Shown: positions 1 to 43,567 of the stretch, one piece after another
How positions within the stretch are numbered: position 1 is the stretch's first letter
Layout: every line of letters starts with the position of its first letter
Origin: a virus
Lineage: Duplodnaviria; Caudoviricetes
Strand: one strand, 5' to 3'
Length of the DNA stretch: 64,000 nt
Virus record (IMG/VR): IMGVR_UViG_3300032138_000009
Coordinates: 1 to 64,000 of that record
The notes under the pieces: generated by a model
What the model was told of the DNA's origin: nothing
Database searches by the model: none
The model's input: only the letters and a program-made list of their open reading frames with translations
Translations under genes and position numbers: made by a program

Positions 1-471
1 TGTAATGATTTCGATGGTGGTACAACTTTGCTGGACTACAAGACCAGTAAGCGCTATGGTGCATACCTCCCAGAGGATTATTATCGCCAGCTGATTATCT
101 ACGCATTCTTGTACACATTAGAGATGGGCGAGATGCCGAAGTTTGTGGGCGTTAATTACCTTCGCTTTGATGATACCTTCTTTGTGAAAGTTACACAGAG
201 CGTGCTTGATGAAGCCAAGGACTTAATTAAGATGGTACACAACTGTTTAAAAGAGCGTGAGGAATATGAGGAACGCTATGAACAGAAACCCCAGAATCTT
301 TGTAAGTGGTGTTCGTTTAATAAGCAACACAACGGTGGACCGTGCGACGTGGTAATTCCTAAATGGAAACCTAAGTTTAAGAAAAGTAAAGAGACATATG
401 CAGATATTGATACAAAGATGAAGGGACAAATAGAGCTTGATAACCAAGAACAGTTTCCCGAGTTTGATTAA
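1..471 (+). CDS. Cas4-like/RecB-family PD-(D/E)XK nuclease, 5' truncated by window edge
   Basis: Frame open from base 1 (CNDFDGGTTLLDYKTSK); DYK motif, RQLIIYA motif, C-terminal CKWC...C Fe-S ligands. Confidence 0.8.
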   Translation, partial: CNDFDGGTTLLDYKTSKRYGAYLPEDYYRQLIIYAFLYTLEMGEMPKFVGVNYLRFDDTFFVKVTQSVLDEAKDLIKMVHNCLKEREEYEERYEQKPQNLCKWCSFNKQHNGGPCDVVIPKWKPKFKKSKETYADIDTKMKGQIELDNQEQFPEFD

Positions 472-479
472 GAGTAATC

Positions 480-488
480 TTTATATAT
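480..488 (+). promoter_or_regulatory. Archaeal TATA box (CTTTATATA), probably leaderless transcript
   Basis: Intergenic; ATG at 510 lies 22 nt downstream; same motif at 2398, 4956, 27999 and 52030(-). Confidence 0.7.
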
Positions 489-509
489 GTCCTCGTTCTA
501 AGAAATTAC

Positions 510-1460
510 ATGGCGCGCGATGATTATGGAGCCATAAACGTGATTTCTGAGGAGGAACGCGAAATCCTAGGCATAGGAGGCTCCAAGAAACCTGAAGAGG
601 ATGACGAAAAGTTATTCGAGACTATCGGTAAAGCTGCTGATAAGATTGGGGAGACCCAAGTAGGTAAGAAGATAGGAACTATAATCACTATCGTGTTGCT
701 AGCGCTTCTGAGTGGGGGGGCCAACATGTCTATCATTCACGATTACTTTAATGGTGATGAAGATATTGGTCCCATCGGGGGCTGTCTACAGACAGACGCC
801 ACCAATTATAACCCACAAGCTACATTCGACGACGGAAGTTGTAACTTTTTAGTTATTATATATGGTTGCACTAATCCCGAAGCTGAAAACTATGATGAGC
901 AAGCTACACATGATGATGGACGTTGCGTAATTTTAAACGACGGTAATGGTAGTGCAAATGAAACAGCTGCTATCTATGGTTGTATGGATATAGATGCTAA
1001 TAATTATGATGACAAAGCTACTGAAGATGATGGTTCATGTGATTATGAGGATGAATATGAAGAACCTGAATGTAATTCTACATCAGTACTTTTTTACCCC
1101 GGCTGGTATGACCAAGAAACAGAAAATATGTCTGTTTACTGGGTGAACGAAACAGCTGAAGGTATATCCGTATTAACAGATATAGATGCTGAGTGTAGTG
1201 ATTATGATGCATCTGTGTTAGTTTATGTGGACGTATGGCACGAAGAGTCTGGTGATTATAATTGGACAGACATATATATGACTGTTAGTGGTGATAATTG
1301 GGATGACCACTGGTTTAATTTCACTTTCGAAGAACTTAACGAAACAGAAGGTGATTGGGCTATGTGGGTAGCATTACTCGTATGGGACGAGGTAGATGAA
1401 ACATATATATTCCAACAACAATTTGAAATCCCAATGATACGAGTGGAGGCTCCTGAATAA
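510..1460 (+). CDS. Type II membrane surface protein with three Cys-paired DDGSC repeats and acidic beta-rich C-terminal domain
   Basis: TM segment IGTIITIVLLALLSGG; repeats IYGCTNPEAENYDEQATHDDGRC etc.; 9 N-X-S/T sequons after the TM. Confidence 0.75.
   Translation: MARDDYGAINVISEEEREILGIGGSKKPEEDDEKLFETIGKAADKIGETQVGKKIGTIITIVLLALLSGGANMSIIHDYFNGDEDIGPIGGCLQTDATNYNPQATFDDGSCNFLVIIYGCTNPEAENYDEQATHDDGRCVILNDGNGSANETAAIYGCMDIDANNYDDKATEDDGSCDYEDEYEEPECNSTSVLFYPGWYDQETENMSVYWVNETAEGISVLTDIDAECSDYDASVLVYVDVWHEESGDYNWTDIYMTVSGDNWDDHWFNFTFEELNETEGDWAMWVALLVWDEVDETYIFQQQFEIPMIRVEAPE
774..1040 (+). repeat. Three intragenic GC-x5-NY-x3-AT-x-DDG(S/R)C repeats
   Basis: IGGCLQTDATNYNPQATFDDGSC / IYGCTNPEAENYDEQATHDDGRC / IYGCMDIDANNYDDKATEDDGSC. 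Confidence 0.9.
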
Positions 1461-1525
1461 TGTGTTGCATAGACTGTGGTTGTTGTAACAAATGTGCGTG
1501 CCCATGTTGTAAGGAGGAGTCGTGA
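1460..1525 (+). CDS. 21-aa Cys-rich metallothionein-like micropeptide MCCIDCGCCNKCACPCCKEES
   Basis: Not in ORF track; TAATG coupling to upstream stop and GTGA coupling to the next start; 9 of 21 residues Cys. Confidence 0.65.
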   Translation: MCCIDCGCCNKCACPCCKEES

Positions 1526-1656
1526 ACGCAACAGATATGTTGCATTTAACAAACAAATTAGATATGATATTATCAACAGTAGATGATATTAAACAGATGC
1601 TGGTCAAACAGCAGATGTTAAAATATGAAGAATTAAAAGAGGAATTAAATGAGTAA
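1522..1656 (+). CDS. 44-aa coiled-coil micro-protein
   Basis: GTG start with AGGAGG SD at 1512-1517; (M)NATDMLHLTNKLDMILSTVDDIKQMLVKQQMLKYEELKEELNE; overlaps next start. Confidence 0.6.
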   Translation: MNATDMLHLTNKLDMILSTVDDIKQMLVKQQMLKYEELKEELNE

Positions 1657-1975
1657 TCATAAGAAAGATGCAGCAAACCCTGATGGGAACTTCGCTAACT
1701 TCATGATGATGTTAGTAGCAGCACCAGTCGTAATGGCTTGGGTAGGACTATCTATATTCTTAGTAACAATGGCATTCCGTCACCCAGAGATAGTAGAAGA
1801 TATAGAATCTTATAAGTCAGTATTACTAATCATAGGGTCACCTGCATTAGTTATTATATATAAGGTATTAGAGTTATGGACTGCTCAACAGAACAGTCAG
1901 ATAGAACAAACAAGAAAGGGTACATTCCGTAATGGGGATGACCATGAACACGAAGAAGAGGAAATAAAAAAATGA
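1649..1975 (+). CDS. Two-TM membrane protein, holin-like topology
   Basis: Two hydrophobic helices and a highly charged C-terminal tail (DDHEHEEEEIKK). Confidence 0.6.
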   Translation: MSNHKKDAANPDGNFANFMMMLVAAPVVMAWVGLSIFLVTMAFRHPEIVEDIESYKSVLLIIGSPALVIIYKVLELWTAQQNSQIEQTRKGTFRNGDDHEHEEEEIKK

Positions 1976-2079
1976 ACGACTTTGAAGTAAAAGAGTTGTA
2001 CGACCAAGTACAAAAAATGCAAGAGCAATTGAATGCACTGAAAGAAAGCAACTGTAAATGTTGCGAGGAGAAACTATGA
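1972..2079 (+). CDS. 35-aa coiled-coil micro-protein with CKCC tail
   Basis: ATGA overlaps at both ends; MNDFEVKELYDQVQKMQEQLNALKESNCKCCEEKL. Confidence 0.6.
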   Translation: MNDFEVKELYDQVQKMQEQLNALKESNCKCCEEKL

Positions 2080-2390
2080 CAGAAGAAGTAACAACAGCAT
2101 GTAAAGCAGCAAAAACGGCTGTAACAGCAGCAGAAGGAATATTAGCAACAGCGGTAGCAGCAGCGGCAGTAACAGCGGCAGCAATACCACCGTTAGCAGC
2201 AGATGAAGCAGCAGCAGCAGTTGCAGCAGGAGCAGAACTAGGACTTAATCCAGCTGCCGATGCATGGTTAGCCGCAGCAACAGCAGCTCTAGCCGCAGCA
2301 ACAACAGCAAATGCAAATGCAGACGCAGCAGTAGTAGTTGCGACAGCAGGAGTAGGCGCAGCTAAAACGGCAGAGACCGCAGCCTGTTAG
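2076..2390 (+). CDS. Ala-rich (47/104) helical protein
   Basis: ATG at 2076 with GAGGAG SD and ATGA overlap (track start 2058 is upstream); GCA-rich codons. Confidence 0.7.
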   Translation: MTEEVTTACKAAKTAVTAAEGILATAVAAAAVTAAAIPPLAADEAAAAVAAGAELGLNPAADAWLAAATAALAAATTANANADAAVVVATAGVGAAKTAETAAC

Positions 2391-2397
2391 AAGTAAA

Positions 2398-2427
2398 CTT
2401 TATATAGGTAGAGATTCTACCTGTATA
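2398..2427 (+). promoter_or_regulatory. TATA box with overlapping inverted repeat (AGGTAGA-gat-TCTACCT), possible operator
   Basis: CTTTATATA 2398-2406; arms at 2406-2412 and 2416-2422, extendable to 2401-2427. Confidence 0.6.
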
Positions 2428-2428
2428 T

Positions 2429-2491
2429 GGGCTCTCGCTGAAGGGCCAAGGCTCCACAGGATACTTAACGCAAGTGCCATCGTGGGAGCCC
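2429..2491 (+). ncRNA. Structured 5' leader / small RNA, unclassified
   Basis: GC-rich island starting at the predicted TSS; GGGCTCTC (2429-2436) pairs with GGGAGCCC (2484-2491); internal hairpins. Confidence 0.5.
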
Positions 2492-2507
2492 CAACATGGA
2501 GAAAACT

Positions 2508-2978
2508 ATGTCAAATAACACAACAAACGAAACAAGCAACAACAATACTGCATTGGATACAAATCAGACTGCAAATGATACAAATACAACCAGTAATGTT
2601 ACTGCAAATGATGTAAGCGAATCTGGAATGTTAGATGGTCTAATGGATGCATTACAAGACTCACCCGAGCTTATGCTCGCGGTTGCAGTTATAGGAGCAC
2701 TAGTTGCTTATATTGCATACACTGTACCAGCAGTTAGGATGATGGTTATGCCATATCTTAAGAAATACGATGAAGAAATTCTCGAATTATTAGATAAGAA
2801 CCTAACAGCAGCACAGGTTAAAGCTTACGAGAAGCTGGATGAAGCAGCTCAAAAGCATGTAAAAGATGCAATGCTCAGAAATGTAATAATGTCTGCATAC
2901 GACCAAAACGATGATAAATTCGTAGCCGTCGTTAAGACAGAAGCAAAAGACGCTTTAGCAGAAGCTAAAAAGCTTTGA
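2508..2978 (+). CDS. Single-TM membrane glycoprotein with sequon-rich N-terminus
   Basis: GGAG SD before ATG 2508; 8 N-X-T sequons in first 32 aa; TM LMLAVAVIGALVAYIAYTV; helical C-terminal domain. Confidence 0.7.
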   Translation: MSNNTTNETSNNNTALDTNQTANDTNTTSNVTANDVSESGMLDGLMDALQDSPELMLAVAVIGALVAYIAYTVPAVRMMVMPYLKKYDEEILELLDKNLTAAQVKAYEKLDEAAQKHVKDAMLRNVIMSAYDQNDDKFVAVVKTEAKDALAEAKKL

Positions 2979-3322
2979 ACGAAGTAGAATATGAGCAGCG
3001 GTTACGCCAGCGGGTAGGAGAAGGAGAATATGAACGTCATAAAGAACTTGTACGCTTGCTGGCTCGCAATCTCGCTCTTGAAGATATTTTGTGGGAAGAA
3101 ATTACTATACATATTCGGGACATTAACTTACGAACAGAGCTCTTGCGACAAAGAAATTCAATCGTTCGTGACATACATACGGAATTCAGAGCGTTAAATA
3201 TAGAGATACCTACAGTATTAGAGACTACAACTGAAGGTTTCGCTAGCTTTTTAGAGGATTTAAACGATGACAACACAAGTGAAGAACGAATCGAAGAAAC
3301 TACAAGCAGCACTGACAGGTAA
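2975..3322 (+). CDS. Probable terminase small subunit
   Basis: TTG start coupled by TTGA overlap; helical 115 aa directly upstream of and overlapping TerL. Confidence 0.55.
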   Translation: MNEVEYEQRLRQRVGEGEYERHKELVRLLARNLALEDILWEEITIHIRDINLRTELLRQRNSIVRDIHTEFRALNIEIPTVLETTTEGFASFLEDLNDDNTSEERIEETTSSTDR

Positions 3323-4949
3323 AGGTGTACATGATTCAAGAGCTTTAGAGAATATATTCGAAGATTGTAGACACAGTGAAGAAAAAATGAAAAAATTGAT
3401 ACGTGCCTTCTGTGGTGCATATCTATTAGACAATAAACAACGCCCTTTACAACTAAGACCACTTCAAGAAATCATAGTTGTTAAGTCGTTAACTCATCCT
3501 AAACACAGTAAACAAAGAAAATTAGCTATTCTAGCTCCAAGAGGTAGTGGAAAATCATACGCACTCGCTGTTGCGGCTACAATATATATGTTTTTTAAGA
3601 GATTTAGAGATTTAATCTTTGTTTTGGCTCCATCAGAGGACCAAGCAGCATTAATCTTTGGATATATCTATAGAAATTTTAAAGATAATAAGTTCTTAGA
3701 TAGCTTAGTAGATAATTATAAATTTCACAATAAGCCCCATATACGCATGAAGGGGGGTACAATGTTGCGTAGAGCTCCATTAGCGCCTAGTAATCAAGGT
3801 CAATCCATACGTGGGCAACACCCTACGTTCTGTATTGTTGATGAGTCCCCACTCATCGACGATAAATTGTTCATTGATAATGTAGAACCAGCGATAGTTT
3901 CAAATATGGCCCCTTTCATAAATTTAGGTACACCAAAGTCTAAAGACAACCATATGCATCGTTATTTATATGATGACGCTTATGCAGAAACATGGACACG
4001 GTTACATTTTACATGGAGAGATGCAGTGGAAACAGGTGATGCTTATTCACCAGCATATACTGAAGAAGATATGTTAACTAAAATGATGGAGTGGGGTGAA
4101 GACTCTATTTACTGGAGAACTGAATATGAATGTGAATTTGTGGAAAGTATTTCGAATGTATTTAATCCAGAAAAAGTTAAGGGATGTTATGATGACTACG
4201 AACTCTACGAACCGGGAACCTATGAGCATGGCGGCAAAAATTGCACTGTTGCTGTTGACATTGGGAAATCTGTCAATAGTACTGTTATTAGTGTTTGGGC
4301 TAGGGAGCAAGATGAATTCGGGGATATCGCACGTCTCATATATCTTGAGGAAATCAATCCTAGAACCGGTGGGCATGACATACCATATCAACGAAAACGT
4401 ATTATGGATATTGCTCGTGGTTTTAGCGTTGGTCAGGTTATTATTGATGCTACGGGGATTGGTGGTGCTATTGAGCAGGACATCAGATTAGAGTGTATTC
4501 AAAGTACCCCTCAGATTCATTTTTTACCATTTATATTTACAGGAGGACCCAGAGGAAGTAAAACTCAAATATATAGAGATTATGTTTCCTTTATGCAACA
4601 ACGTAAGATTAAAGTTCCCAATCCAGAACCATTAGATATGGTGTCTCGTAAAGTGATTAATAAATGGTTTAGGGAACATGTTGATTTAGAATATGTTATG
4701 GATGCTGCTAATAAGACAGAACGCATTAGCGCACCCGATACTAAACATGACGATTACTGTGATAGTTCAGTTTTAGGTATACATGCAACTTTAGCTATGT
4801 TACCCGGTACTGCAACGGTGGCTGCTTCCCAATCTGGTCAATCTAGAGCTAATCAGCAACTAAATTCTAATATAGGCAGACATTCAGGAGTTTCCCTTTT
4901 TAGAACAAAAGGACGTAATTTCAATCCAAAAGGTAAGTTTTCATTATGA
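3267..4949 (+). CDS. terL: Terminase large subunit
   Basis: Walker A APRGSGKS, Walker B CIVDES, RNase H-like nuclease VAVDIG ... HDDYCDS. Confidence 0.95.
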   Translation: MTTQVKNESKKLQAALTGKGVHDSRALENIFEDCRHSEEKMKKLIRAFCGAYLLDNKQRPLQLRPLQEIIVVKSLTHPKHSKQRKLAILAPRGSGKSYALAVAATIYMFFKRFRDLIFVLAPSEDQAALIFGYIYRNFKDNKFLDSLVDNYKFHNKPHIRMKGGTMLRRAPLAPSNQGQSIRGQHPTFCIVDESPLIDDKLFIDNVEPAIVSNMAPFINLGTPKSKDNHMHRYLYDDAYAETWTRLHFTWRDAVETGDAYSPAYTEEDMLTKMMEWGEDSIYWRTEYECEFVESISNVFNPEKVKGCYDDYELYEPGTYEHGGKNCTVAVDIGKSVNSTVISVWAREQDEFGDIARLIYLEEINPRTGGHDIPYQRKRIMDIARGFSVGQVIIDATGIGGAIEQDIRLECIQSTPQIHFLPFIFTGGPRGSKTQIYRDYVSFMQQRKIKVPNPEPLDMVSRKVINKWFREHVDLEYVMDAANKTERISAPDTKHDDYCDSSVLGIHATLAMLPGTATVAASQSGQSRANQQLNSNIGRHSGVSLFRTKGRNFNPKGKFSL

Positions 4950-4955
4950 CGAAAT

Positions 4956-4964
4956 CTTTATATA
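4956..4964 (+). promoter_or_regulatory. TATA box for head operon
   Basis: CTTTATATA between TerL and portal. Confidence 0.65.
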
Positions 4965-4994
4965 CTGATACCAATTACTATTTAAGTGGTAGCC

Positions 4995-6287
4995 ATGGCG
5001 ATTTTTGACAGAGTACGAAGAGCTTTCGCCACAACCGGAAGCGAACCTCCCTTTAAAGAGGATGACCCAGTAAGTTTTGGAGCAGGTATAATCAAACGAT
5101 TAAACCTATCTAATAACTTTTCTTATGGGACTAAAAAGAAGTATGAAGAACATTTAGGAAGACCTAGAATATATATGGACGTATATCTATCTGACCCTAT
5201 AGTTAGAAGTTTGATAGACCTTCCTTGTTTTTATGCAGTTAAGGATAATTTTGATATCGTAACAGATGACGATGATAAAAGAGAACGCATAGAAGAAATG
5301 TTTAGAGATATAAACATAGAGAATATTTTATATGGTTGGGTTAGGAACGCCAGAATTTTTGGAACAGGCTACTTAGAATGGACTGGAGATAATCTAGTTT
5401 TACGTTCTAGCCAGAATATGTATGTCCAAAGAAATGAACATGGACAAATTAAATACTATTATCAAGATATTGGTGATGATAAAGATAATATTCATTTTGA
5501 ACCTGAAGAAATATGTGCTTTATTAAATAACCCTTTTGATGATTACGCGTATGGGTTATCAGATATTCACCCTATTCTTTATTTAATAGATTTAAAAGAT
5601 TATGCAGAAAGAGATATAGGAGCTGCTTTGAATAAATACGCTTCGTCTCGATTTGATATATCGTGTGGTTTACCAGATATGCCTTACGGACCTGATAAGA
5701 TTAATGAAGTAGTAGATGCTTTTAACAACTTAGCTCCGGGCGAAGATATCATTCACGGTAATGATATAGAAATTAAAGAACTTCAAGGTACTCAACGTGC
5801 CTTTGAGTATGGTAAATATACAGACGATATATTAGATAAAATACATATGGCACTAAAGGTCCCTAAAACTATGTGGACCGACCCAGATAAGGCTCGTCCA
5901 ATTTTCGAACCTTATGTAAGATATCTACAAACTATGATTGAATCTGCTTTGAATGCCCAGTTAATGCCTCAAATAGAGGATGGCGAAGCGAAATTTAAGT
6001 TTAGGCAAATTAATGTAGAAGACGCCTTTACTAAAGCAAAGACAGATATGATTTATTTATCTGAAGGAGTATTATCACCCGGCGAAGTTAGGGAAGAGAG
6101 AGGTCTCGACCCAGAAGGAGTAGTCGAATTAGATATGCTAAAGGACGTAGCTGTTAAACAAGCTGGACAATCGGATAAGAACGCTAATGTTTCTGGTGGA
6201 AAAGACACCGACAAGAAAGAAGAGAGCGCTAGAGCACAGAATCGTGGTAACCAACCCGCTGCCAATGCGACAGGAGATAGAGCATGA
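4995..6287 (+). CDS. Portal protein
   Basis: About 430 aa between TerL and protease; GTGYLE and PFDDYAYGLSDI segments; alternative GTG start at 4986. Confidence 0.85.
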   Translation: MAIFDRVRRAFATTGSEPPFKEDDPVSFGAGIIKRLNLSNNFSYGTKKKYEEHLGRPRIYMDVYLSDPIVRSLIDLPCFYAVKDNFDIVTDDDDKRERIEEMFRDINIENILYGWVRNARIFGTGYLEWTGDNLVLRSSQNMYVQRNEHGQIKYYYQDIGDDKDNIHFEPEEICALLNNPFDDYAYGLSDIHPILYLIDLKDYAERDIGAALNKYASSRFDISCGLPDMPYGPDKINEVVDAFNNLAPGEDIIHGNDIEIKELQGTQRAFEYGKYTDDILDKIHMALKVPKTMWTDPDKARPIFEPYVRYLQTMIESALNAQLMPQIEDGEAKFKFRQINVEDAFTKAKTDMIYLSEGVLSPGEVREERGLDPEGVVELDMLKDVAVKQAGQSDKNANVSGGKDTDKKEESARAQNRGNQPAANATGDRA

Positions 6288-7549
6288 GTTATGAAAAATG
6301 TGTAGTATCCGTAGGAGCTACCTTAAAAAAGCGTGGTGTTGATAATCACGAAGGGCTAGCTAGTTCTATGTGTAATACATGGGCGGACCAGAACGGTGTA
6401 GAGAGGGAGTTTGGGAGAACTCTAGTAGAAGGAGATAAAAGAAGGACCTTTGCTTTATCATTAGGAGAAAGCGAAGATATATCATTTACTGAAGAGGAAG
6501 GAGTACAAACAGCAACATTTCCTGTTATTGCTATAACTTCAGGGCCTCATGAGTATGAAGAAGATGATATACAGCAAAAGGTTTATATAGAACCTGAGGT
6601 GTTAAGAAAGGATATAGAAAGTTTTAAAGAGCTTCCTATATATCTGAACCATCAAAGGACATCAGACGATTTAATTGGCATGGCTGCTAATCCTGAGGTG
6701 TTTGAGATGGATAATGGAATGACCGCAATTAAGATGTTAGCTACTGTAGATAACAAAACTGAGAGTGGTAAAGAAGTGCTAGAAAAAGTAAAGGAAGGGG
6801 ATATGACTCATGTAAGCATTGATTGGTTTTCCAATGATGTAGATGTGATGGGTGATACATTCGCAACGAATATTCGCCCTACAGAGGTGAGTTTTATTGA
6901 TAATAATACAATGGACCCCGTCTGTAAGGAATGTACAATTGAAAATGATAATGAAACGTGTGATTTGCATGCTAAGAAAGATGACCACGACTGCGGTTGT
7001 GGAGGTCATGAAGGAGCGTGTGAATGTTCAGACGGGAAACAAGAGGTAATAAATATGACTGAAGAAACTCCTGTGAAATCCGAGGCAGAAAACATAGTCG
7101 AACGCGAATTTGCGTCACTACGTACACAACTTGAAGAAGCAACAGCTTCAAAAACGGAAATTGAATCCCAGTATAATGATGCTATGAAAGAAATCGAAGC
7201 ATTTAAATTAGCTGAGGAAGAGAGAGCCGCTAAAGAAGCAGAAGCTAGAAAAGTTGAAACCGTAGAAGCAATTATATCCAAAGAAATCTTATTCAATACA
7301 ATTGATGAAGACAAAAAGGATGCACGCGTCGAGGAATTAACTGCTTGGGATGAACCAAGGCTGACTGGTTTCAGCGAAGCTCTTGCTGCAATGCCGGTAC
7401 CTGAAGAGACCGAAAGAACCTTCGGAAAGGGTAAATCCAACGAGGGTGAAGAACTGTCTCCAACAGAGACCGAAAGGCAATTTGCAGTCAAGATGGACGA
7501 AAAAACTGGGCGATTTAAATTGAACCCAGAAGTACTAAGAGGTAATTAA
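6284..7549 (+). CDS. Prohead maturation protease fused to coiled-coil scaffold
   Basis: IYLNHQR (His) and HVSIDW (Ser) motifs, EVSF; C-terminal acidic coiled coil; precedes capsid genes. Confidence 0.8.
   Translation: MSYEKCVVSVGATLKKRGVDNHEGLASSMCNTWADQNGVEREFGRTLVEGDKRRTFALSLGESEDISFTEEEGVQTATFPVIAITSGPHEYEEDDIQQKVYIEPEVLRKDIESFKELPIYLNHQRTSDDLIGMAANPEVFEMDNGMTAIKMLATVDNKTESGKEVLEKVKEGDMTHVSIDWFSNDVDVMGDTFATNIRPTEVSFIDNNTMDPVCKECTIENDNETCDLHAKKDDHDCGCGGHEGACECSDGKQEVINMTEETPVKSEAENIVEREFASLRTQLEEATASKTEIESQYNDAMKEIEAFKLAEEERAAKEAEARKVETVEAIISKEILFNTIDEDKKDARVEELTAWDEPRLTGFSEALAAMPVPEETERTFGKGKSNEGEELSPTETERQFAVKMDEKTGRFKLNPEVLRGN
7055..7549 (+). CDS. Nested in-frame scaffolding protein (164 aa)
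   Basis: In-frame ATG in context aagaggtaataaatATG, nearly identical to the 7552 and 28812 initiation regions. Confidence 0.65.
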   Translation: MTEETPVKSEAENIVEREFASLRTQLEEATASKTEIESQYNDAMKEIEAFKLAEEERAAKEAEARKVETVEAIISKEILFNTIDEDKKDARVEELTAWDEPRLTGFSEALAAMPVPEETERTFGKGKSNEGEELSPTETERQFAVKMDEKTGRFKLNPEVLRGN

Positions 7550-7551
7550 AT

Positions 7552-7944
7552 ATGGCAACAGAAATATTACTGAATGACGGTGGTGCACCAGCACGTATCC
7601 TTCCATTTGTAGCAGGTGAAGACGTCACCGCTGGTAATGCTTTAACAGTAAATACTAGTGGCGAAGTCGTAAATGCTAACAGTGGAGACTCTACAAATAA
7701 ATTTGCAGCAGTCGGATATGCGCTAACAACCATTACGTCAGGCAACATAGCCAGTGTTATCACTGGACACGGTGTTGTTCTAAACGTAAATTGTGCAGAT
7801 GTAAATGCTGGCATAGCAATGATGATGGGGACCACAGATGGTCGTCTTCTAACTGCAACAGCAGCAGCAGCTGGACCTATTGCGCAAGCAACTACGTTAG
7901 AGAACAACAGTGCAGCTGGGCTCACTAAGGTGATAACCCACTAG
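7552..7944 (+). CDS. Capsid decoration/cement protein
   Basis: 130 aa Gly/Ala/Thr-rich beta protein between scaffold and MCP; AGEDVTAG...VGYA pattern. Confidence 0.65.
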   Translation: MATEILLNDGGAPARILPFVAGEDVTAGNALTVNTSGEVVNANSGDSTNKFAAVGYALTTITSGNIASVITGHGVVLNVNCADVNAGIAMMMGTTDGRLLTATAAAAGPIAQATTLENNSAAGLTKVITH

Positions 7945-7955
7945 GTAGGTAAATT

Positions 7956-9044
7956 ATGGTCGCATTATCAGATAATACAGCACCCGGTCTACTTACTTCC
8001 CTTAACACAGGAGCTTACGCAGCTACCGGTGGAACAGGGGAACGTGTTCTCATAGATTATAAGGACGCAATCAAAGATTATAAGGTCACAGACCTTGCAG
8101 CTTTGAGTATGTTCGCAGAACCTATGACCACAGAGACTGGCGGTGATATTGATATCACATTCGCAAAACCCTCAATGGGTATGGAAGAAATCAACGAAGG
8201 AAACACTCCTAAGTATCAACACACTAACTTACGCTCCGAGAGAGTGTCTGTTGGCGAGTGGGGACTTGCAGTAGGTGTAACCCGTCGTATGATAGAAGAT
8301 TCGAGATTTAACGAAGTAGAGATGGCTTTAAATGAAGCACGCAGGGCGGTAGACCGTCATGTTACAAAACACACTATTTATGCTTTGCTAGGTATCCTTG
8401 ATGCTGGTTTTGGAACCGGTGTTGACGGAGCAAGCATAGTATCAGGAACAACTGAGGCTAATATTGTAGACTTTAGCGATAATGTCTATGGTGGATTCCT
8501 TGGAAAAGGTTCTGAAATTAATGTGGGACGTAACTATTCATATGGTCTTACAGCATCTGGCACGCTTCAAACAGGTCACTATGTAACTGCAACATCATCA
8601 ACAGCTGGTGATATTGCATTGAGTGACTTAACTGACGCTATGGAACTTATTGGTGGACACGGCTTTACAGCTAACACATTAATGATTTCCCCAGCACACT
8701 ACAAAAGTTTATTGAATTTAGCAGACTTTACTACAGCAATAAGTTCAACGGCAAATGAGTCGTTCCCTTATGTTGTAGAAGAAACTGCTCCATTCAAGAA
8801 TACTCTTGGAAGTGGTCTTGTAGGCAGCATCTATGGATTAAACATTGTTACAAACGCATGGTGTCCTAGCGATAGGGTTTTCATGTGGGACAACTCTGTT
8901 AAACCAATGAGTTATGTCGAGAGAAGGCCATTGACTGTAGAAGAAGCAAATCCGGGATTCGGAATTGTTGGTTCTTATATGTCGATGAGATACGGATTGA
9001 AGATTACAAGTCCAATGTCCGGTGTAGTTATTATAAACGCTTAG
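7956..9044 (+). CDS. Major capsid protein (HK97 fold)
   Basis: 362 aa in head operon; EINEG, VSVGEWG, LMISPAHY, VGSIYGLNIVTN patterns. Confidence 0.9.
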   Translation: MVALSDNTAPGLLTSLNTGAYAATGGTGERVLIDYKDAIKDYKVTDLAALSMFAEPMTTETGGDIDITFAKPSMGMEEINEGNTPKYQHTNLRSERVSVGEWGLAVGVTRRMIEDSRFNEVEMALNEARRAVDRHVTKHTIYALLGILDAGFGTGVDGASIVSGTTEANIVDFSDNVYGGFLGKGSEINVGRNYSYGLTASGTLQTGHYVTATSSTAGDIALSDLTDAMELIGGHGFTANTLMISPAHYKSLLNLADFTTAISSTANESFPYVVEETAPFKNTLGSGLVGSIYGLNIVTNAWCPSDRVFMWDNSVKPMSYVERRPLTVEEANPGFGIVGSYMSMRYGLKITSPMSGVVIINA

Positions 9045-9111: not shown

Positions 9112-12100
9112 GTGAGAAGGTTGGCATTACCAAATACAAACACTAGAATACCGGGTACATGGCGCTCCGATGCTACGGGGGCCTTCCCTCGTCTATCTAC
9201 TCATGGGAGTGTAATTGGTGGTAATGTTAGAGGAGCACCTGTAGAACTTACCGCAGGAACTTCTGGATATGCTTTAGTAGCAGATGATACAACTGAATCT
9301 GGTCTAGCATGGGCATCTTTTGCGGGTTCTAATTATTATGTTTCTTCTATAGCTTTTAATACATCTACTGGAGTATTAACTCTAGGTAGGTCTGGGTTAG
9401 GAGATTTAACTCAAGACTTAGATGGTCGTTATTCTACCCTATCTTCTCCATTAACAACCAAAGGAGATATATGGGTTTATGGAAGTGCAAACACTCGACT
9501 ACCTGTAGGTACAGATAGTTATGCTTTAGTAGCAGACAGTAGTACAGCTACTGGTTTAAACTGGGCAGCTAATTCCGATGCTAATTATTATACAACTTCT
9601 GCTTCATTAAGCGCTGGTACTCTTACAGGAGTTATTGCTGGCGGTGGTTCTAATTGGACTGCTGACATAAGCGCTGTAGCTACTGGTTCTATTACATCTT
9701 CTACTCAATACTATAATACTTTTTATAATGCTGCTACTGGTCTGGTTGGTAGTAGTCGTCTACAAACAGATGGCTCTAATAATATAATACTTAGTGGAGC
9801 TAGTAATATAGCTAAGACTGCGGCAGATTTCCAGTCAACTCTAGGGGTAAGTGGAACTTTAACGGTTAGTGGAGCTACCAATATTATAGATACACTTAAT
9901 GTAACAGGAAATACAATAATAGAAGGTACTTCCTTATTATCAGGTAATACAACCATAACAGGTTCATTAGCTGGTACAACTAGTGCCAATTTTGGTACTA
10001 CATTAACAGCAACGGGAGCTACTACAATGTTGGGAGGAGGTACTGCCTCTGGTAATTTATACGTCAAGACAGGTAGTAGGAACCAGATGCATATGGACCC
10101 TACCTTAGAAGCTGCTAAAATGGTTATTAGAGATTCAGGTGGTACAGCAGATATATCTGAGTTTATGTATTATCCTAGATTATCTTTAGAACAGGATGCT
10201 ACAGACCCTACTGGCCCTGCGGCCAATGCGGGATATCCATCTATATACTTTTTAAAATATGGACCATCTGGTGTATCTAGTCCTGTAGGAGGAGACCCAG
10301 TAGGATGGAGACAGGTAGCTTCAGGAGCAGCTGGAGCATCTACCGCCCCTCAGTATATGGTGTGGGAATATAGTACTGATATGGATGGGGCTAATTTTTC
10401 TGAGAAGTTAAAATTAAAGAATGATGGTACATTAACAACCACAACTTTTGCTGGCGCATTATTAGGTACTATAGATAGTACTACTACAGCAACAACACAA
10501 TCTGCAAGCGATAACTCTACTAAGGTAGCGACGACAGCTTATGCTGATGCAGCCGCCGCAGGTGGGGGAGGAACAATTGGTGGTTCTATCACTGACAACC
10601 AAGTAGCCTTTGGAGCTTCTACAGCAAACAGTATAGAAGGGTCGGCCAGCTTTACGTGGGATGGGGCCAATTTTAATATTACTGGTAGTAGTCCTAAAAT
10701 TATAGTAGATGGTGGTGGAAGCGATGATGCTTCTATCGAACTGAGAGAATCTTCTCAATATGGAGGTAGAATGTATTACGATGGTGATTCTGGTACCTTT
10801 ATGAAGTTTACTACAATAGATGGTGGAACTGAGAAGATAAGAATAGCTTATGATAGATATGGTGCTGTATTTTTAGGAAGCGCTCCTACTGTAGATGCTA
10901 GTAGTACTCCTACAATGTATTTAACATCAGGCGGTGACGTGGGTATAGGTACAGAAGCACCTTCAAAGAAATTAGATGTTCGTGGTGGTGCTACTTTTTC
11001 AGGTAGTATATATGCTTCTGGAAGTGACCTTGGTGGATATATATCAAGAACGGATACTAACGAAATGGCAATTTATGCCGGAGATGGCACTAAAGGTATT
11101 CACCTCGCACCCTCTATTAACTATTTGACTGCGCCTTCAACTAGATGGCAAGTTCAATCTGATTTTAGAGTTAATAGTACTAAACAATTACAGTTCGGAG
11201 ATGACGAACATTATATTTATAGTGATGGTACTGATTTAATATTAAAAACTGTCACAACAGCTACTAATGGTATAATACTAGATGCTAAAGTAGATACCAC
11301 CTTTAAGATAGATGGTACAACTAAAATGACTTTAGATGCTGATGGACAATTAGGTATAGGTACAACTACCCCTAGCTTCCCTTTACATTTATATGGAGCT
11401 GCAACACAAGAAGCAAGAATACAGTCTACTGATAGTGGTGCGTATTCAAGACTTCAATTAAAATCCCATGATGCAGGATATGGTCAACTTCTTTTTGGAG
11501 ATAGTGCAGCAGATGGCGCAGGAGCATTAAATTATACACATTCATCTGACACTCTAGATATTAGCGCAGCTAACGCTGTTCAATTATCTATAACAGATAA
11601 TTTAATTACACTAGGTGATGGCGTAGTATTAGCACCACACTCAAGTGATAACTTTACAATTGACTCTCCTAACGGTATAGTTTTAGATGGTACATCAGCA
11701 ACTAACGGTGTACAGTATCACGATGGTGGTACAGAGTTATTGAGGATTCAGAACTCAAGTAGTAATCCTATTATTAGGACTATGCAAGATTCTAAAGATT
11801 TAATTTTTCAACAGTTTGATGCAACTGAAGTAATGCGTATAACTGATAATGCAAGAGTAGGTATAGGCACAACTGCACCAAACGCTAAGTTAGAGATTCT
11901 TTCTACCACAGAACAACTAAGATTATCCTATGATGGTTCTTATGAATCTAAATTTACAGTGGACAGTGCTGGTGTTATGACTTGGACCAGTGACAGTACT
12001 CACTTTTATAAACCGGGTAATGGTCTGAATTATTTCAATGGGGGCTCAGGAGAAAATAGATTATATGTTTTCGATAACAACGATTCAGCTTATGCTACTT

Positions 12101-15100
12101 ATAGTGGAAAATATCTTACCCTTAGAGATGGTAGTGCAAATCAAGATGTATATCTAAATGCAGAAGGTGCTTCTTATTTTGTTCATAGAGTTGCTTTTGG
12201 AGGTACAGTTCCATTATCAGACATTGGGATAACCGTTTGGCAAGGGATGTCTCTTAAAGAACAAGGCTCTGCTACGGCTGACACTGCTGATTACGGACAA
12301 TTCTGGGTTAAGAATGACACCCCGAACAAACCATACTTCACCGATGACGCTGGTACAGATTTCGATTTAACTGCAACAGGGACTGCGGCTACGCCCGGTG
12401 GTTCTGATACTCAAATTCAATTCAATAATGCAGGTGCCTTTGGTGGAGTATCCGGATTTACCACGACAGACGACGGTTCGGATATAGTTCTAACAAGTGC
12501 TACAGCATCTAAACCAACATTTACTATAACTAATACAAATGCAGATGCTAATTCGTCCTTTTTAATATTTAATAAAAATACCGCAAGTCCTGCGGTTGGA
12601 GACAATCTAGGTTATATTAGATTTGATGGTAAAGATAGTGCAGGAGGTAGTCCTACCTATGCTGATATATTCGCTCAATCTACCAATGTAACAAATCTTT
12701 CTGAAGAAGGAGCTATAAGATTCCGAACTTCTACTGGTGGAAGCATGGCAGACTTAATGATTCTATCAGGAGCTAATGTAGGTATAGGCGTAACTTCACC
12801 CGATGCAAAATTACACATTGATGCACTATCAGAAGGTCAGGGACTTATTGTTGATAGTGATTATTCTACTGGCGACCAAATAAGGGTTCTCAAAGATGGT
12901 TCCACTAGTAAAATGGGGAAGGTAACATTTGATGGAACTAATATGGTTGTGGGTGCTTGGGGTGGAAGTACAGGTATTAGGTTTTGGAATAATGCAGAAG
13001 GAATGCGTCTTACTGGTAGCAACTTAGGTATAGGCACAACTGCACCCGCTCATAGATTAGATGTAGTAGGAACAACTCAACTCTCAGGTAATTCAACTAT
13101 AAGAGGTACACTAGCTATTGAACATACTAATTCTCAAGGTAATCATATCTATACAGACAGTGATGGAAATTTAGTATTGGGTGGCCAAAGTACTGCGGGT
13201 ACTGATGACTATGTTTGGTTAGGTGATGATGATGGTAATGTAGGTATAGGTGTATCTGGTACTTCATATAAACTAGACGTAGTAGGAACGACCCAACTAT
13301 CAGGCAATGCTGTTATAACGGGTACGCTTGGTGTTACAGGTATAGCTACTCTAGCTGATGCTTCTGTTTTAGCTTCGAGCGCTGCTCCAACAGCAGATGC
13401 TCAGATAGCTAATAAGAAATACGTGGACGATAGTATCTCTACAGAAACGCCCGGCGGCTCTGATACTCAAATGCAATATAATAACGGAGGAGCTTTCGGT
13501 GGGGCTTCATCTGTGGTATATGATGATGGTGGTGGACATTTAAAACTAACTGGAACTAGTCAACTACAGTTCAGTGGAAGTAGTCATTATATTTACCAGA
13601 ATGGTGATGATATTAATATTGTGAATAGTGCTGCTAATGGAGAAATACGCTCTGATGCTGAAGTACGTCATCGGTGGTATATAAATGGAAGCCAAATGCT
13701 TCAAGTAGATGATTCAGGAGATATGATTTGGATGAATGCTGGGTCAGAGAAAGGAAGGTTTGATGTCTCTGCTGGTAGGTTAGGCATAGGCACAGCTGCA
13801 CCTAATCATGCACTAGAAGTAGCAGGGACTATCAGAATTGATAATGGAACTACAGATAATGAGTTACAATTCGACGGTGCTGAAACTGTACTAGAACAAT
13901 CAGGAAGTGCTATATTTAAACAGCGTACATGGGATGGAAGCGGTTATTATGTTCCTATACTTTGGACAGGAACAGCTGCTACTCAAAATATAAAATTACA
14001 TGGGGGTATGACAACTTTATCTGGAACCCAGATGGAACAAAGTGGTTCCTTTATATTAACTAATGGAGCAATCACATCAAACCCCGGCACTAACCACTTA
14101 TGGGCATCTGGTTCAACATTATTCTGGGGTGGCGCACAAATTGGTACAACTACGCCCGGTGCTGGAGCTATTCAAGGTACAGCCACAGCAGGAGAAGTTG
14201 CTTATGGTGATGGAAGTAACTCTATTACAAGTACCTCGAATTTTACGTTTACAGATGATAGTGGCATGACTATTACTAGCGCTACAGCTAGCAAACCAGT
14301 TTTAATGCTTAAAAATACAAATGCTGATGCTAATGCAGCAGAATTACAATTCTATAAGAGTACCACAGATGAAGCTGTTAATGATTATGCGGGTAAGTTG
14401 TCTTTCTATTTCGATAATGATGCCGCTCAGAAAACATTAGGGGCTAAGATTTATTCTACTGCTCAATCTGTTACTGATGGTGCAGAAGGTGGGTATCTTT
14501 ATTTTTCAACTATGAAAGCTGGTACAGAAACTATTACCATGACTATGAAATCAGGGAATATTGGCTTTGGAGAGTCATCTCCGGGGTATCAATATTCTTT
14601 CAGTGACCGAGCTACCTCAGACACTAATATTCTGATTGAAGGTAATGATGCAAATTGGTTATGGCAAAATAAAACAGATGGGTCTCTTCTTTGGAAACAA
14701 AACACAGATGGTGTTTCAGCAATGACATTAACATCTGGTGGTAATCTAGGTATAGGCACAACTTCACCTACTGCTGAATTAGATGTAAGGGGTTCAAGTT
14801 CTGCTGGAATGGCAGCCTTTGTTTCAGGTACAGGAAACGGTACCTACCCAGTAATGCATGTAGTAGATTCAGCTGATACCGAAGTTGCTTGGTTTGAAGG
14901 TAATAGGGCAGGAGACACGGGTGCTTATATAGGCGTTAGACACTGGCCCACATCTGCTACTGAGAATGCAAGGTCAGGAATAAAATTCCAAAGTAAAGAC
15001 GATGGTGGAGCACTAACTAATTATGCCACACTACAAATGCGTGTTGATGATTATACTGGTGGTACTGAGGACGGTAAACTTAAAGTCCTTGTTATGGCTG

Positions 15101-17841: not shown

Positions 17842-20800
17842 TGTAACAATCACCCCATTAAGTGGTTCGCTTGCTTTAGATGGAAGTATAGGTACGAAGC
17901 CTACTCCATCTGCAACTACTATAGGATATGTATGGGCTTCGGGAACAAATAATGCTGGCCTTTGGTATACTGATGGAGCTGGAACAACTGCACAACTTAA
18001 TGCCGCAGCAGGAGGAGGAGATATAGGTGGTACAGTCTCCGATAACTATATTCCCATTGCTGATGGTGATGATACTCTTGCCAACTTTACTCCTGCATAT
18101 GTAGAAGGGTATAATATTATTATAGGTAGAACTGCACAAAACACAACCACAGATGCAGACGACAATACAATGCTAGGTCACAACGCAGGTTATGCATTAA
18201 CAACTGGAGATAGGAATGTTTTTATAGGTAGAAATGCAGGAGACCAAACAACCACTGCTAATAGTAATGTAGCTATAGGAAGATATGCTATGGGTGGTGC
18301 AGGAGCTACTGTAGCATATTCCGTTGCTATAGGTACTCAAGCTAATAATTCGATAGGAGGTACTTCGACTGGTGTAGGACATATGTCTAATTATGCAGCA
18401 GGTCAACATAAGACTGCTGTTGGATATCAAGCTAATTTATATCCATCTGGAAATGATAATACAGCTGTAGGTCATCAGGCCCTTCTTGGTGCATCTGCTG
18501 GAACTGTCTCGGCTTATAGTAATGTAGCAATCGGTAAACAAAGTATGGCATCAGCTACTACAGCACATAGCAATGTGGTTGTAGGTAATCTAGCGGGTTA
18601 TACTCTTACAACAGGATATTACAATACTTATATAGGTAAGGACGCAGGAAGTGGTGCCACTACAAGTGCTCACAGTAATGTGGCTGTAGGATTTGATGCA
18701 TTATCCTCGAATCATGGTGCAGGAAATGTAGCTATAGGTAGAGGAGCTTTACGTACTACTACAGATGCTAATCAGGTTGCTATAGGATATAGTTCTTTAG
18801 CATCTAATACAGCTGGAGAAAAGAACACGGCTGTTGGATATGATACACTTACAACAAACACCACAGGTAATTATAATACTGCTATGGGACATCAAGCGCT
18901 CGCATTAAACGTTCATGGTGATTATAATACAGCGTTTGGATATAAGGCTTTATTAGCAGCAGCCACTGCTGATGGCACTGGTGGTAATACTGCTATAGGT
19001 GGCTATATGACTTTAGGAAGTGTAACAGCAGGTATTCGTAATAATGCGATGGGTCATTCTGCTGGACACACACTAACTACAGGTAACTATAATGATTTTA
19101 TAGGCTACCAAGCAGCCTATTCTAATGTACATGGAGATTATAATGTAGCTATAGGAAGAGCTGCTTTATATTATAATACACCTGCTGATGGAGCAGGAAG
19201 AAACGTAGCAATAGGTTCTTGGGCTTCTTATGGTCCCGGCACGACTTTTGCGATGACTGGTACTACAGCTATAGGTTATGCTGCTGGATATTGGACTTCG
19301 GGTAACGCTAATGTTTGGATAGGAGAAGGAGCTGGTTATGGTGGTGAAGCTGTTGGTAATACATCTACTCAATCTGTATCTATAGGTGCTGAATCTTCTA
19401 AAGCTATAACTACTGCTAATAATCACGTAGCCGTAGGATATGCCGCAGCTAATGATATCACGACTGGGGCTGATGGAGTTTATATAGGAAAAACAGCTGG
19501 ACAAAAATTAACAACCCAGAATTATAATGTTGTTATAGGGGCAGATGCAATGAATGCAGCTACAGGAGTTTCTGATTCAGTTGTTATAGGTAGACAAGCT
19601 ATGGGTGGAGCTGCTGCTACAGGAGATGACAATGTTATAATGGGATATAGAGCAGCTTATGATTTAACTACTGGATATAGTAATGTAATAATGGGTCATT
19701 CTTCTGCTGAAAATATAACAGAAGGGCATAAAAATATTATTGCTGGACATTCAGCAGGTGGTGCAATAACTACTGCTCATAGTAATGTAGCCATAGGATA
19801 TCAAGCTTTAGACTCAACCACAGTAGGTTCAGAAAACGTAGCAATAGGTGCTTACGCTGGACAAGCTTTGGTTGGAACAACTAGTAGTGTTTATGGAGGT
19901 TTTAGTGTTTTTGTTGGACATACAGCAGGATATCAAATGACAGGTAATGTCAGCTATGGTGGTAACACAATGGTAGGACATGCTGCTGGTTATAGTGCTA
20001 CTGGAGCTGATAGGTCCACAGGTATTGGTGCTTCAGCTATGTATTATGCTGATGGTGCAAAATATAATACAGCTGTTGGAAGAGTAGCTGGAGCTTATGC
20101 AAAAGGAACAGGTAGTACTCATGTAGGAGATTCCTCTGGATATAGAGTTAGTGGTAATTATAATACTTCTGTTGGTTATGAAGCTTTATCAGGTGCTTCG
20201 TCAGGAACAGGTTATGGAACAGCAAAAGAGAATGTAGCTATAGGAAGGCAAGCACTAGCGAGTGTAACTTCAGCCAACAGAAATACAGTAGCAGGATATA
20301 CAGCAGGTTTCTCTATGACAGATGGTCATAACAACAATATATTTGGTTATCAAGCAGGTTACGCTATAACAACTGGCTTCGGTAACGTTCTAAGTGGATA
20401 CCAGACAGGTAAAGCTTTAACTGATGGAGTATACAACACCATGACTGGAGTTCAGGCTGGTTTATATGAAACAGGTGATTATAACGTAATGATGGGACAT
20501 CGCGCTGGAGAAGGAGGTTCGGGAGACCCTGATACTCTACGCAGTGTTTTTATCGGATATCTTTCAGGATATAGACAATCAGGAGCTAGTTATAACGTAG
20601 CTGTAGGAACTTATTCCGCAGCAGGTGCTGACTTCTCTGGTGGGTCTAATGTTATGATGGGATATTCAGCAGGGCAGAACGCCACTACAGCTAATGCAAA
20701 CGTATTTTTAGGATATTATGCAGGTTCTAGTGGAACTACAGCACAACATAATGTAGTCATAGGAAATCAAGCAGGTCAAGAATTAACTACAGGTACACAA

Positions 20801-43400: not shown

Positions 43401-43567
43401 TGATTAAGGGTATTAATGAAACATATGCTACAGGTGGACCTAGAGCTATAACGTCTTATGATTTTAATTTAATGGTAGAAGAGATAGCTTTATTAGATAT
43501 AGATGGCGACTTAATGACTGATGTATTTCCTATAGGGGGTATACAAGATGCTAGAAGCTACTCCTAA
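40475..43567 (+). CDS. Tail-tip protein with N-terminal PKD domain and Dit-like C-terminus
   Basis: ATGA coupled start; IDWGDG...VSHTYTATGNF PKD motif; VRVYWDE...WGVI...YDFNLMVEE C-terminal pattern. Confidence 0.6.
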   Translation: MSSAKWYSDSDASTAATTATVMDKRYVQFTFNDKDISALYIDWGDGEGRSVDTANYQWMQYPTPVQEPIVSHTYTATGNFDICVQTINQKGIVSKYYASGGSISGSVTPFEYRKSIERMVVSDGPATAIMKCENRTVKSGIDNSIFDEIGSGQVYAQIPPILNATEYGYLPSKIKLAITAVLVDSTRSSSSEGLDVISTDGGSRRVEKIYMELDTEDAGDGTYDGPQNILTLATDISGNAAAIDGAAISQILKVEYRNPKVGSSYLTDYTRNEVFNRLKIFLTAFDYASDGGTFRPITYVSAGSPIKSVDDLYRYITMDFSQSRAKASNVSNSKYRYDNGKGIFDLETFQWSITGTNYFNNNTRQTKETKRIDYTYMPRPFGLRGNDTYGSTGTQALYNGKWVENTTATTASTSYIVDQFALDDFGRFYDQYHLVRNSMQPSSSADATGTTVSSLIDNKPYVFRITPPVNWTGANDDTQSATKIDAPGMDTADGNYTADYTSEAFNNAYENEVSFTGMNGASFKDIDNASRKANEYFLLLFPKKTNKVFFNMTNYANKMMSDWANATGLTIAGVYYLGVEKSGTINQVAEWKALEFEDTTSISKTYANTTNGNSLSGSYVTKEESFTKSGYISFDTPSDWDAISLDNLCGGYYNSTDQTATGSLSIKITGTISGNADNGLVGRYLVVTGSSISDQMTEHFNIPPDVGAFKYIAFPSGTNNMPLWLGQGLGYGWDGDDTLYFHYGENNATHYNVEGLTEDDPIKWIIRRINIYDVIDGPSKVYKGSTAADLPPVDAGPTEAGAGVTWNGTYMIATTGSGVGAALEAAWKDTDLYALKIAVNGTGGAATKPKAEMWNVFDATEGHTAVIKEIDDSAYNLNSLAITSSISMSRAGSYYTTISRKGKVFIVRTGTPLQEIAFSSVALGDTTTPSSAFTTSSVPSSLYGHLHKIREIQSNDVRVYWDEQQKDGTYVRIWGVIKGINETYATGGPRAITSYDFNLMVEEIALLDIDGDLMTDVFPIGGIQDARSYS

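Follow-up and report, generated by a model that had tools for sequence, protein, structure and literature searches.

Organization of the locus

The DNA analysed here, referred to below as the window, is the first 64,000 nucleotides of the IMG/VR virus record IMGVR_UViG_3300032138_000009, a virus contig of 81,208 bases. Our subject is a cassette of seven open reading frames (ORFs) at positions 510 to 2978, which lies on the plus strand between a nuclease gene and the terminase and portal genes (Table 1). The first six ORFs encode a type II membrane protein (F4), a Cys-rich peptide, a predicted coiled-coil peptide (F8), a protein with two transmembrane (TM) spans (F2), a peptide combining a coiled coil with a Cys cluster (F5) and an Ala-rich protein, and the successive stop and start codons overlap as TAATG, GTGA, ATGAGTAA, ATGA and ATGA, as read from the sequence. 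The seventh, a single-TM protein (F3), has a promoter of its own and is coupled through TTGA at 2975-2978 to the gene of a small helical protein, p115. A preliminary description of this DNA had taken these ORFs for a dedicated envelope module acting in lysis, membrane fusion or superinfection exclusion. The inventory on which it was built is borne out by our analysis, in that the chain of overlapping junctions is present in the sequence, the TATA boxes of the chain and of the separately promoted glycoprotein lie at 480-487 and 2399-2406 as TTTATATA, and the Cys-rich 21-mer, the 2-TM 108-mer, the Ala-rich ORF and the glycosylation sequons have the features ascribed to them.

A third TTTATATA box is located at 4957-4964, and the context (A/C)TTTATATA is common to the three sites. 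The boxes at 480-487 and 4957-4964 each end 22 nucleotides (nt) before a start codon (ATG 510 and GTG 4986, respectively), a spacing that implies a leaderless or near-leaderless mRNA for the chain beginning at 510, and the box at 2399-2406 is followed by a leader region of about 100 nt. The motif is not enriched over the whole window (18 occurrences against 11.5 expected); the sites at 480, 2399, 4957 and 28000 are all intergenic and lie ahead of genes. Neither tRNAs nor Rfam matches were found in the cassette region. In a tailed virus infecting marine archaea, the genes described here make up the first two late transcription units.

Several of the ORFs are short (21, 44 and 35 amino acids (aa), all below 60 aa). 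Starts that overlap the preceding gene are usual in all parts of these genomes. The small ORFs are not chance occurrences: their reading frames are kept in homologues, and the ratio of nonsynonymous to synonymous substitutions (dN/dS) lies between 0.12 and 0.40 across the cassette families, including the ORFs of 21-44 aa and the Ala-rich ORF, with pairwise values of 0.33 for F8, 0.37 for F5 and 0.14-0.20 for the Ala-rich gene. All seven ORFs are thus coding genes.

Table 1. Features of the cassette, its surroundings and selected distant genes of the window, with profile matches and the occurrence of cassette families among 45 non-redundant relatives
Feature	Position	Strand	Match (E-value)	Loci with family
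3' end of PD-(D/E)XK/Cas4-like nuclease gene	1-471	+	PF12705 (2e-5)	
Promoter, archaeal-type, TATA TTTATATA at 480-487	473-509	+		
F4, type II membrane protein, 316 aa	510-1460	+		37/45
21-aa peptide with 9 Cys	1460-1525	+		
F8 (cc44), 44 aa, predicted coiled coil, GTG start	1522-1656	+		15/45
F2, 108 aa, 2 TM spans	1649-1975	+		45/45
F5 (cc35), 35 aa, coiled coil and Cys cluster	1972-2079	+		30/45
Ala-rich protein, 104 aa (110 aa if start 2058)	2076-2390	+		
Second promoter, small hairpin, leader and Shine-Dalgarno	2388-2507	+		
F3, single-TM protein, 156 aa (160 aa if start 2496)	2508-2978	+		45/45
p115, 115 aa, helical, TTG start, overlaps TerL	2975-3322	+		
TerL, large terminase subunit	3267-4949	+	PF03237 (1.4e-8), phrog_2 (4e-33)	
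Portal gene, GTG start 4986	4986-6287		PF04860 (9e-12)	
aIF-1A	54901-55257	-	8.6e-16	
Hsp20-type chaperone	57608-58012	-	1.9e-10	
RecU-like resolvase	61187-61720	-	5e-9	

A conserved membrane core in a recombining cassette

Relatives of the locus were retrieved from IMG/VR with TerL and F2 (152 loci), and families were counted in the 45 non-redundant loci that span the interval from the nuclease gene to p115. As determined with tblastn, the conserved order is nuclease, F4, a variable part, F2, a second variable part, F3, p115, TerL and portal. The interval between nuclease and terminase ranges from 976 to 3838 bp among the 45 loci and contains more than 30 ORF families. F2 and F3 are found in every one of these relatives and are therefore core genes rather than morons. 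The order F8-F2-F5 is invariable wherever those genes occur: F8 directly precedes F2 in every locus that has it, and F5 nearly always comes straight after F2 with an overlap of -4, seen as an ATGA junction in the window.

The variable parts are exchanged between close relatives. The nearest of these (L001-L003, TerL 99% identical) are 98.4% identical to the window from position 2388 onward, but share no nucleotide similarity with it over 1055-2387, where the cassette has been swapped; the recombination breakpoint is sharp and falls at 2388, on the conserved leader of F3. These three loci carry another allele of F2 of about 175 aa (for example L001:1418-1942), with an extra N-terminal TM span and a core that is only about 30% identical. 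F4 and F2 occur as two co-varying allelic types, which are exchanged between otherwise near-identical genomes. We also considered whether a 69-aa protein (F10) is the split-off N-terminal TM span of the long form of F2, and rejected this as there was no significant similarity.

The slot between F5 and F3 is occupied in relatives by other small genes, such as basic proteins, a protein with the motif CCDCCC and a paralogue of a head protein. The last is related to a 130-aa gene at 7552-7944 of the window, which adjoins the major capsid gene (7956-9044) and matches head scaffold/decoration PHROGs; its paralogue lies inside the variable cassette in two relatives (L091:3616-4023 and L094) and matches Phage_cement_2 (2e-6) along with head scaffold/decoration PHROGs. 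The Ala-rich gene, with 47 Ala among the 104 residues of its product, was found outside the window only in L093, L115 and L127, with its frame kept; it is 97% identical to its counterpart in L127, where the flanks are 72-80% identical, and judging from these alignments it is an accessory insert that moves on its own. Homologues of the 21-aa Cys-rich peptide, which groups with the Cys-cluster family F5, are present in 11 of the 152 loci at 54-90% identity (tblastn).

Thus, the mosaic interval, the swapped cassette in the nearest relatives and the independently moving Ala-rich gene together indicate that the seven ORFs are not co-inherited. The cassette is recombination-prone and is not a fixed seven-gene machine; it consists of a conserved core, F2 with its coupled coiled-coil/Cys peptides, F4 and F3, with exchangeable small soluble genes in between. 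The proposal of one dedicated seven-gene module does not survive the synteny comparison, since only two of the seven genes are universal, and a slot that accommodates non-membrane genes, including a cement/decoration-like paralogue, also speaks against a dedicated membrane module. The preliminary description holds in so far as membrane proteins encoded by the virus (F2, F3 and usually F4) form a conserved set in a late cassette beside the terminase. The guess at seven ORFs is hence narrowed to two universal, constrained membrane proteins confined to viruses, F2 and F3, and their frequent partner F4.

The two-span protein F2

The two hydropathy spans of F2, at about residues 14-37 and 52-74, are separated by an acidic loop, and the protein ends in a charged tail rich in His and Glu, with 11 Asp/Glu and 3 His. 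Judged only from the distribution of charges, both termini would lie in the cytoplasm (N-in/C-in). The invariant residues include P26, W31, G33, E53, Y55, G63, P65, W77 and Q81, and dN/dS is 0.14. In the loci selected by TerL, the median identity to the window is 88% for F2 against 77% for TerL, and the identity of F2 exceeds that of TerL in 27 out of 33 such loci. A profile search against 1.8 billion representatives yielded a family that falls into 93 clusters at 50% identity. Of these, 45 have E-values below 1e-10, and every cluster that was inspected consists of small 2-TM proteins with helical, His-containing tails.

The F2 family is virus-only in every collection searched, with no relatives in 185,579 prokaryote species genomes. 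Neither F2 nor F3 has a match in GenBank phage records (tblastn), and profile searches of the PDB with F2, F3 and p115 were empty. The cassette proteins gave nothing above noise in Pfam, PHROGs, NCBIfam and PADLOC, and found only unnamed virus clusters in the ESM Atlas. In particular, F2 and its distant relatives did not match any described holin family in Pfam, PHROGs, NCBIfam or the PDB. Weak matches of F5 were to phrog_10610 (2e-4) and to phrog_937, annotated as 'hemolysin' (0.06).

In three distant lineages F2 is located in the head block near the portal gene. The gene order in the first is TerL, portal, an F4-like type II protein, two small ORFs, F2, an 819-aa protein (DUF5824/DUF3721) and a cement-like protein; in the second it is portal, a 70-aa tail-anchored coiled-coil protein, F2 and an 810-aa protein; and in the third it is portal, F2, a 121-aa 1-TM protein and a 636-aa protein. 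The adjacency of F4 and F2 holds even where F2 is only about 30% identical. From these positions, F2 and in many cases F4 are late genes whose link to morphogenesis genes extends across lineages. They do not fit the lysis-cassette setting of the preliminary description, as F2 stands beside the portal gene in these viruses and not in a lysis cassette. The tail-anchored coiled-coil proteins directly before F2 in one lineage are 70-81 aa long; 3 of 12 match the XhlA-type 'hemolysin' phrog_1193 (best E-value 0.001) and one matches a holin PHROG at 0.08. The XhlA-like layout of an N-terminal coiled coil and a C-terminal TM span is confined to this distant lineage and does not occur in the window. 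Comparison of F8 and F5 with the upstream ORFs of the distant lineages gave no significant match.

The large protein after F2 (636-819 aa; L227:10321-12780, L187:10411-12843 and L217:10886-12796) contains segments of DUF5824, DUF3721 and phrog_7595. A basic cassette protein of another relative (L066, 98 aa) matches the phrog_7595 part, a similarity that hints at fusion or fission of head-module domains. We also observe that most C-terminal tails among the distant F2 relatives contain a pair of His set a constant distance of about 11 residues apart, and that peptides neighbouring F2 carry the Cys clusters CCC, CxCC and CCDCCC. Metal binding by the F2 tails or the Cys-cluster peptides is a possibility.

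The surface protein F4

F4 comprises a conserved cytoplasmic N-terminus (residues 1-50), a TM span at about 51-73 and an exterior part, in which three Cys-bounded repeats (86-182) are followed by a variable immunoglobulin (Ig)-like β-sandwich (193-316). The protein contains nine N-x-S/T sequons and has a dN/dS of 0.15. The pairwise identity of the β-sandwich averages 44% as compared with about 72% for the N-terminus and repeats. Only residues 193-316 are confidently predicted in the AlphaFold2 (AF2) model, with a predicted local distance difference test (pLDDT) score of about 90. This domain resembles generic Ig-like domains with VIA Z-scores of 10-12, and its structural matches include the second domain of GH2, domain III of HAP2 and transglutaminase barrels; Foldseek searches of the PDB and BFVD and a VIA-wide search retrieved only generic Ig/fibronectin type III (Fn3)-like domains and no functional lead. 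The Cys repeats match extracellular repeats of large surface proteins with T9SS or CHU_C sorting domains, and this match to secreted proteins supports a location of the repeats outside the cell.

F3, its structured leader and p115

An alignment of 33 relatives places the start of F3 at ATG 2508, with GGAG 6 nt upstream. Its predicted topology has an external N-terminus of about 45 aa, whose first 30 residues contain eight sequons, a TM span at about 57-76 (numbered from the start at 2496), and a conserved, all-helical C-terminal domain in the cytoplasm. The AF2 model is helical but of low confidence (pLDDT 43). F3 evolves with a dN/dS of 0.21 and is very abundant in marine metagenomes, where metagenomes overall hold at least 2191 clusters at 90% identity. 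We set aside the Joint Genome Institute (JGI) names attached to some homologues ('RNA polymerase subunit F', 'MotA'), as no domain supports them.

Ahead of the gene lies a leader (2428-2491) about 65 nt long that is closed by an 8-bp stem, GGGCUCUC/GGGAGCCC, after which comes the GGAG at 2498-2501. The TATA box, a covarying hairpin and the leader upstream of F3 are common to 68 loci; RNAalifold predicts 12 pairs, five of which show compensatory changes. The whole promoter/leader element (2388-2507) is conserved above its flanking genes and has no match in Rfam.

F3, p115 and TerL share this single conserved promoter and leader. The p115 gene starts with a TTG within the stop codon of F3, at a TTTGAA junction retained in 54 out of 66 unique homologues, and contains no in-frame ATG. 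This conserved overlap suggests termination-reinitiation, and translation of p115 probably depends on that of F3. By its position and its overlap with TerL, p115 is a putative small terminase subunit, though comparison with small terminase families in Pfam and PHROGs and with PDB profiles gave no match.

Genomic context

The end of the record (77220-81208, corresponding to L155:13220-17208) repeats positions 1-3589 of the window at 78-84% nucleotide identity, rising to 94% across the F2 gene; the genes that separate F2 from F3 are not the same in the two copies. Given this divergence, the contig is most likely an end-overlap of two co-assembled strains with a genome of about 77 kb. An identical copy of the 316-aa F4 protein is encoded on a contig of 77,318 bases.

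Genes for a family B DNA polymerase, ribonucleotide reductase, ATP-dependent ligase, glycosyltransferase, aIF-1A, Hsp20 and RecU are on the minus strand. With TerL, portal and major capsid protein of the HK97-type head/packaging module, together with family B polymerase, ribonucleotide reductase, ATP-dependent ligase and aIF-1A, the gene content has the combination that marks Magrovirales-like viruses, and on this basis the virus is a magrovirus-like tailed virus of marine archaea, a placement that stops at an order-like level. Five giant ORFs (2909, 1922, 1496, 1933 and 1036 aa) lie on the plus strand in 9112-23602 and 30187-43567; with four hydrophobic segments, the product of 1496 aa is a candidate tape measure protein. 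Besides F4, F2 and F3, the whole 81-kb record has no predicted membrane proteins other than this tape-measure-like one and, in the early region, the products of a few micro-ORFs (35-88 aa).

Possible roles of the membrane core

We find a conserved, virus-only membrane core (F2, F3 and usually F4) in a recombining late cassette, and egress is the leading interpretation of it. The likeliest job of the core proteins, on a tentative view that we hold at somewhat below even odds, would be to act on the host membrane so that virions can leave the cell. Any lytic virus must get across the membrane, and F2 and F3 are late membrane proteins shared by all the relatives, with no further candidates beside them. 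F2 moreover has the layout of a class II holin (108 aa, two TM spans and a charged C-terminal tail), its setting recalls the architecture of gp33-gp34 in the archaeal virus HFTV1, and XhlA-like partners precede it in one lineage. Lambdoid lysis cassettes, too, are positioned just upstream of the terminase genes, in parallel to the cassette of the window.

In this reading, the cytoplasmic membrane of the host would be the target late in infection, with F2 serving as a holin-like membrane-disrupting subunit whose activity its small coiled-coil partners may modulate, and F4 and F3 would assist or set the timing at the surface of the cell and at the packaging machinery. A hydrolase domain indicative of an endolysin was not detected in 1-6300 with Pfam or PHROGs, and no endolysin or spanin gene adjoins F2; an adjacent endolysin is not expected in a host without murein. 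The membrane fusion role of the preliminary description finds no supporting features.

The remark of the preliminary description that egress of tailed viruses from archaea without pseudomurein is poorly understood agrees with the literature: neither Magrovirales nor tailed archaeal viruses as a whole have any known egress genes (PMC10791045, PMC5434244, PMC11706807), and the escape of tailed viruses from archaea lacking murein is an open question (PMC10791045). The only lysis transcript proposed for an archaeal tailed virus is the late gp33-gp34 transcript of the haloarchaeal virus HFTV1, which is embedded in structural genes (PMC12542753). Its gp33 has 110 aa, two TM spans and a charged tail, and an ORF of 52 aa overlaps its end. 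The magrovirus papers searched for membrane or lysis genes do not mention any, and holin-like genes of Poseidoniales viruses have been proposed only in a different order, Adrikavirales. F2, F3 and F4 are the best candidates so far for the exit of such viruses, whose hosts belong to an archaeal group that is among the most abundant in surface seawater.

Several observations weigh against a role in egress. Homology to holins, pyramid-forming proteins of archaeal viruses (PVAPs) or lysis families was not found in Pfam, PHROGs, NCBIfam or the PDB, and F2 aligns with HFTV1 gp33 with a probability of only 0.8% in hhalign. The lysis assignment in HFTV1 is itself an unpublished personal communication (PMC12542753). 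The degree of conservation of F2 given above is unusual for a holin. The XhlA-like matches are weak and could reflect coiled-coil and TM composition, and the small peptides of the window have no TM span. Furthermore, F2 lies between portal and head genes in three lineages, a position that an assembly role fits at least equally well.

Such an assembly role is the main rival to egress on account of the conservation of F2, its portal-adjacent position and the coupling of F3 to p115, even if we consider it unlikely. The core would then form a membrane-anchored platform for head assembly and packaging, on which the helical cytoplasmic domain of F3 holds the small terminase at the membrane, while portal and prohead assembly at the membrane is nucleated or chaperoned by F2 together with F4. 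The stop codon of F3 that harbors the start of p115 and the promoter and leader common to F3, p115 and TerL could be read in this way, as could the lineages in which F2 directly follows the portal gene or an F4-like protein and F2 stand between the portal and the 636-819 aa head-module protein. The variable slot likewise holds a head cement/decoration-like paralogue and a basic domain that elsewhere is fused into the large head-module protein, and strong conservation of F2 fits fixed viral partners. However, no homology to assembly factors was found, the small terminase in question is so called by position only, and an internal role would call for neither a glycosylated ectodomain nor a hypervariable surface domain. 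To our knowledge, membrane-bound assembly has not been described for archaeal tailed viruses.

The variability of F4 bears on another reading, less probable again than the assembly platform, in which membrane proteins of the infected cell exclude related viruses or mask or alter the receptor, with the ectodomain of F4 setting the specificity. The most variable part of F4 is its distal β-sandwich, its cytoplasmic end is conserved, and its Cys repeats are typical of extracellular proteins; the swapping of F4/F2 allelic types is what an interface between viruses, or between virus and host, would be expected to show. In phages, superinfection exclusion is the work of small membrane proteins such as T4 Imm and HK97 gp15. 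F2 and F3 are unlike typical accessory exclusion genes in being universal and strongly constrained by purifying selection; the setting is one of late structural genes, not early ones, and PADLOC found no defence families among all nine proteins. As F4 is missing from 8 of the 45 loci, at most F4 fits a function of this kind.

That the genes have no common function, a recombination hot-spot between conserved sequences having gathered unrelated small genes whose coupling merely reflects a compact genome, would account for the extent and diversity of the interval, the sharp breakpoint at the leader, the mobility of the Ala-rich gene and the ordinariness of overlapping starts, but we regard it as the least probable of the alternatives given that F2 and F3 are universal, F4 and F2 remain adjacent in a lineage with a divergent F2, and the order F8-F2-F5 is fixed.

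Returning to egress, a bolder version that we consider improbable is that F2 and F3 constitute a new system by which tailed archaeal viruses leave the cell, with no relation to holins or PVAPs, in which a highly conserved 2-TM disruptor is coupled to packaging via F3. If this were true, the co-translation of F3 with the terminase behind a structured leader would mean that lysis is timed by packaging. Whatever the function of the core, a recombination hot-spot with two F4/F2 allelic types matters for strain-level dynamics between virus and host.

Comparison with known systems

Among known systems, the class II holins and the lambdoid lysis cassette (S21 of phage 21; S-R-Rz of lambda) resemble F2 in being small 2-TM proteins with a charged cytoplasmic C-terminal tail, encoded by a late gene just before the packaging genes along with small coupled partner ORFs. 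F2 differs from them in the lack of sequence or profile similarity, of an endolysin/spanin gene and of a dual-start motif, in a conservation far above that usual for holins and in a host devoid of murein. HFTV1 gp33-gp34 shares with F2 a charged-tail 2-TM protein of about the same size, an overlapping small ORF and a location among structural genes, although homology between the two proteins is not detectable. In the XhlA-XhlB pair of the Bacillus prophage PBSX, a coiled-coil membrane protein acts together with a holin, and the tail-anchored coiled-coil protein before F2 in one lineage is comparable; in contrast, F8 and F5 of the window have no TM span, an amidase partner is absent and the matches to phrog_1193 are marginal.

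PVAPs, proteins of about 10 kDa in which α-helices follow an N-terminal TM span, are known only from viruses of thermophilic archaea. Like the PVAPs STIV C92 and SIRV2 P98 (PMC10791045), F3 is virus-only and is predicted to combine one TM span with an all-helical cytoplasmic domain, for which the low-confidence AF2 model (pLDDT 43) predicts five helices. It departs from them in its sequon-rich external N-terminus of about 45 aa and its length of 156 aa instead of about 95, and no homology was found.

With respect to assembly, the proposed platform would work much as T4 gp40 does with the gp20 portal in membrane-bound prohead initiation; gp40 is likewise a small membrane protein genetically linked to portal and packaging genes, and there is no homology. 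Finally, the superinfection exclusion proteins T4 Imm, HK97 gp15 and TP-J34 Ltp are early or lysogenic accessory genes with no PADLOC counterpart among the proteins of the late F2/F3 core; what they have in common with the cassette is that they are small virus-encoded membrane or surface proteins, a likeness closest in F4 with its variable exposed domain.

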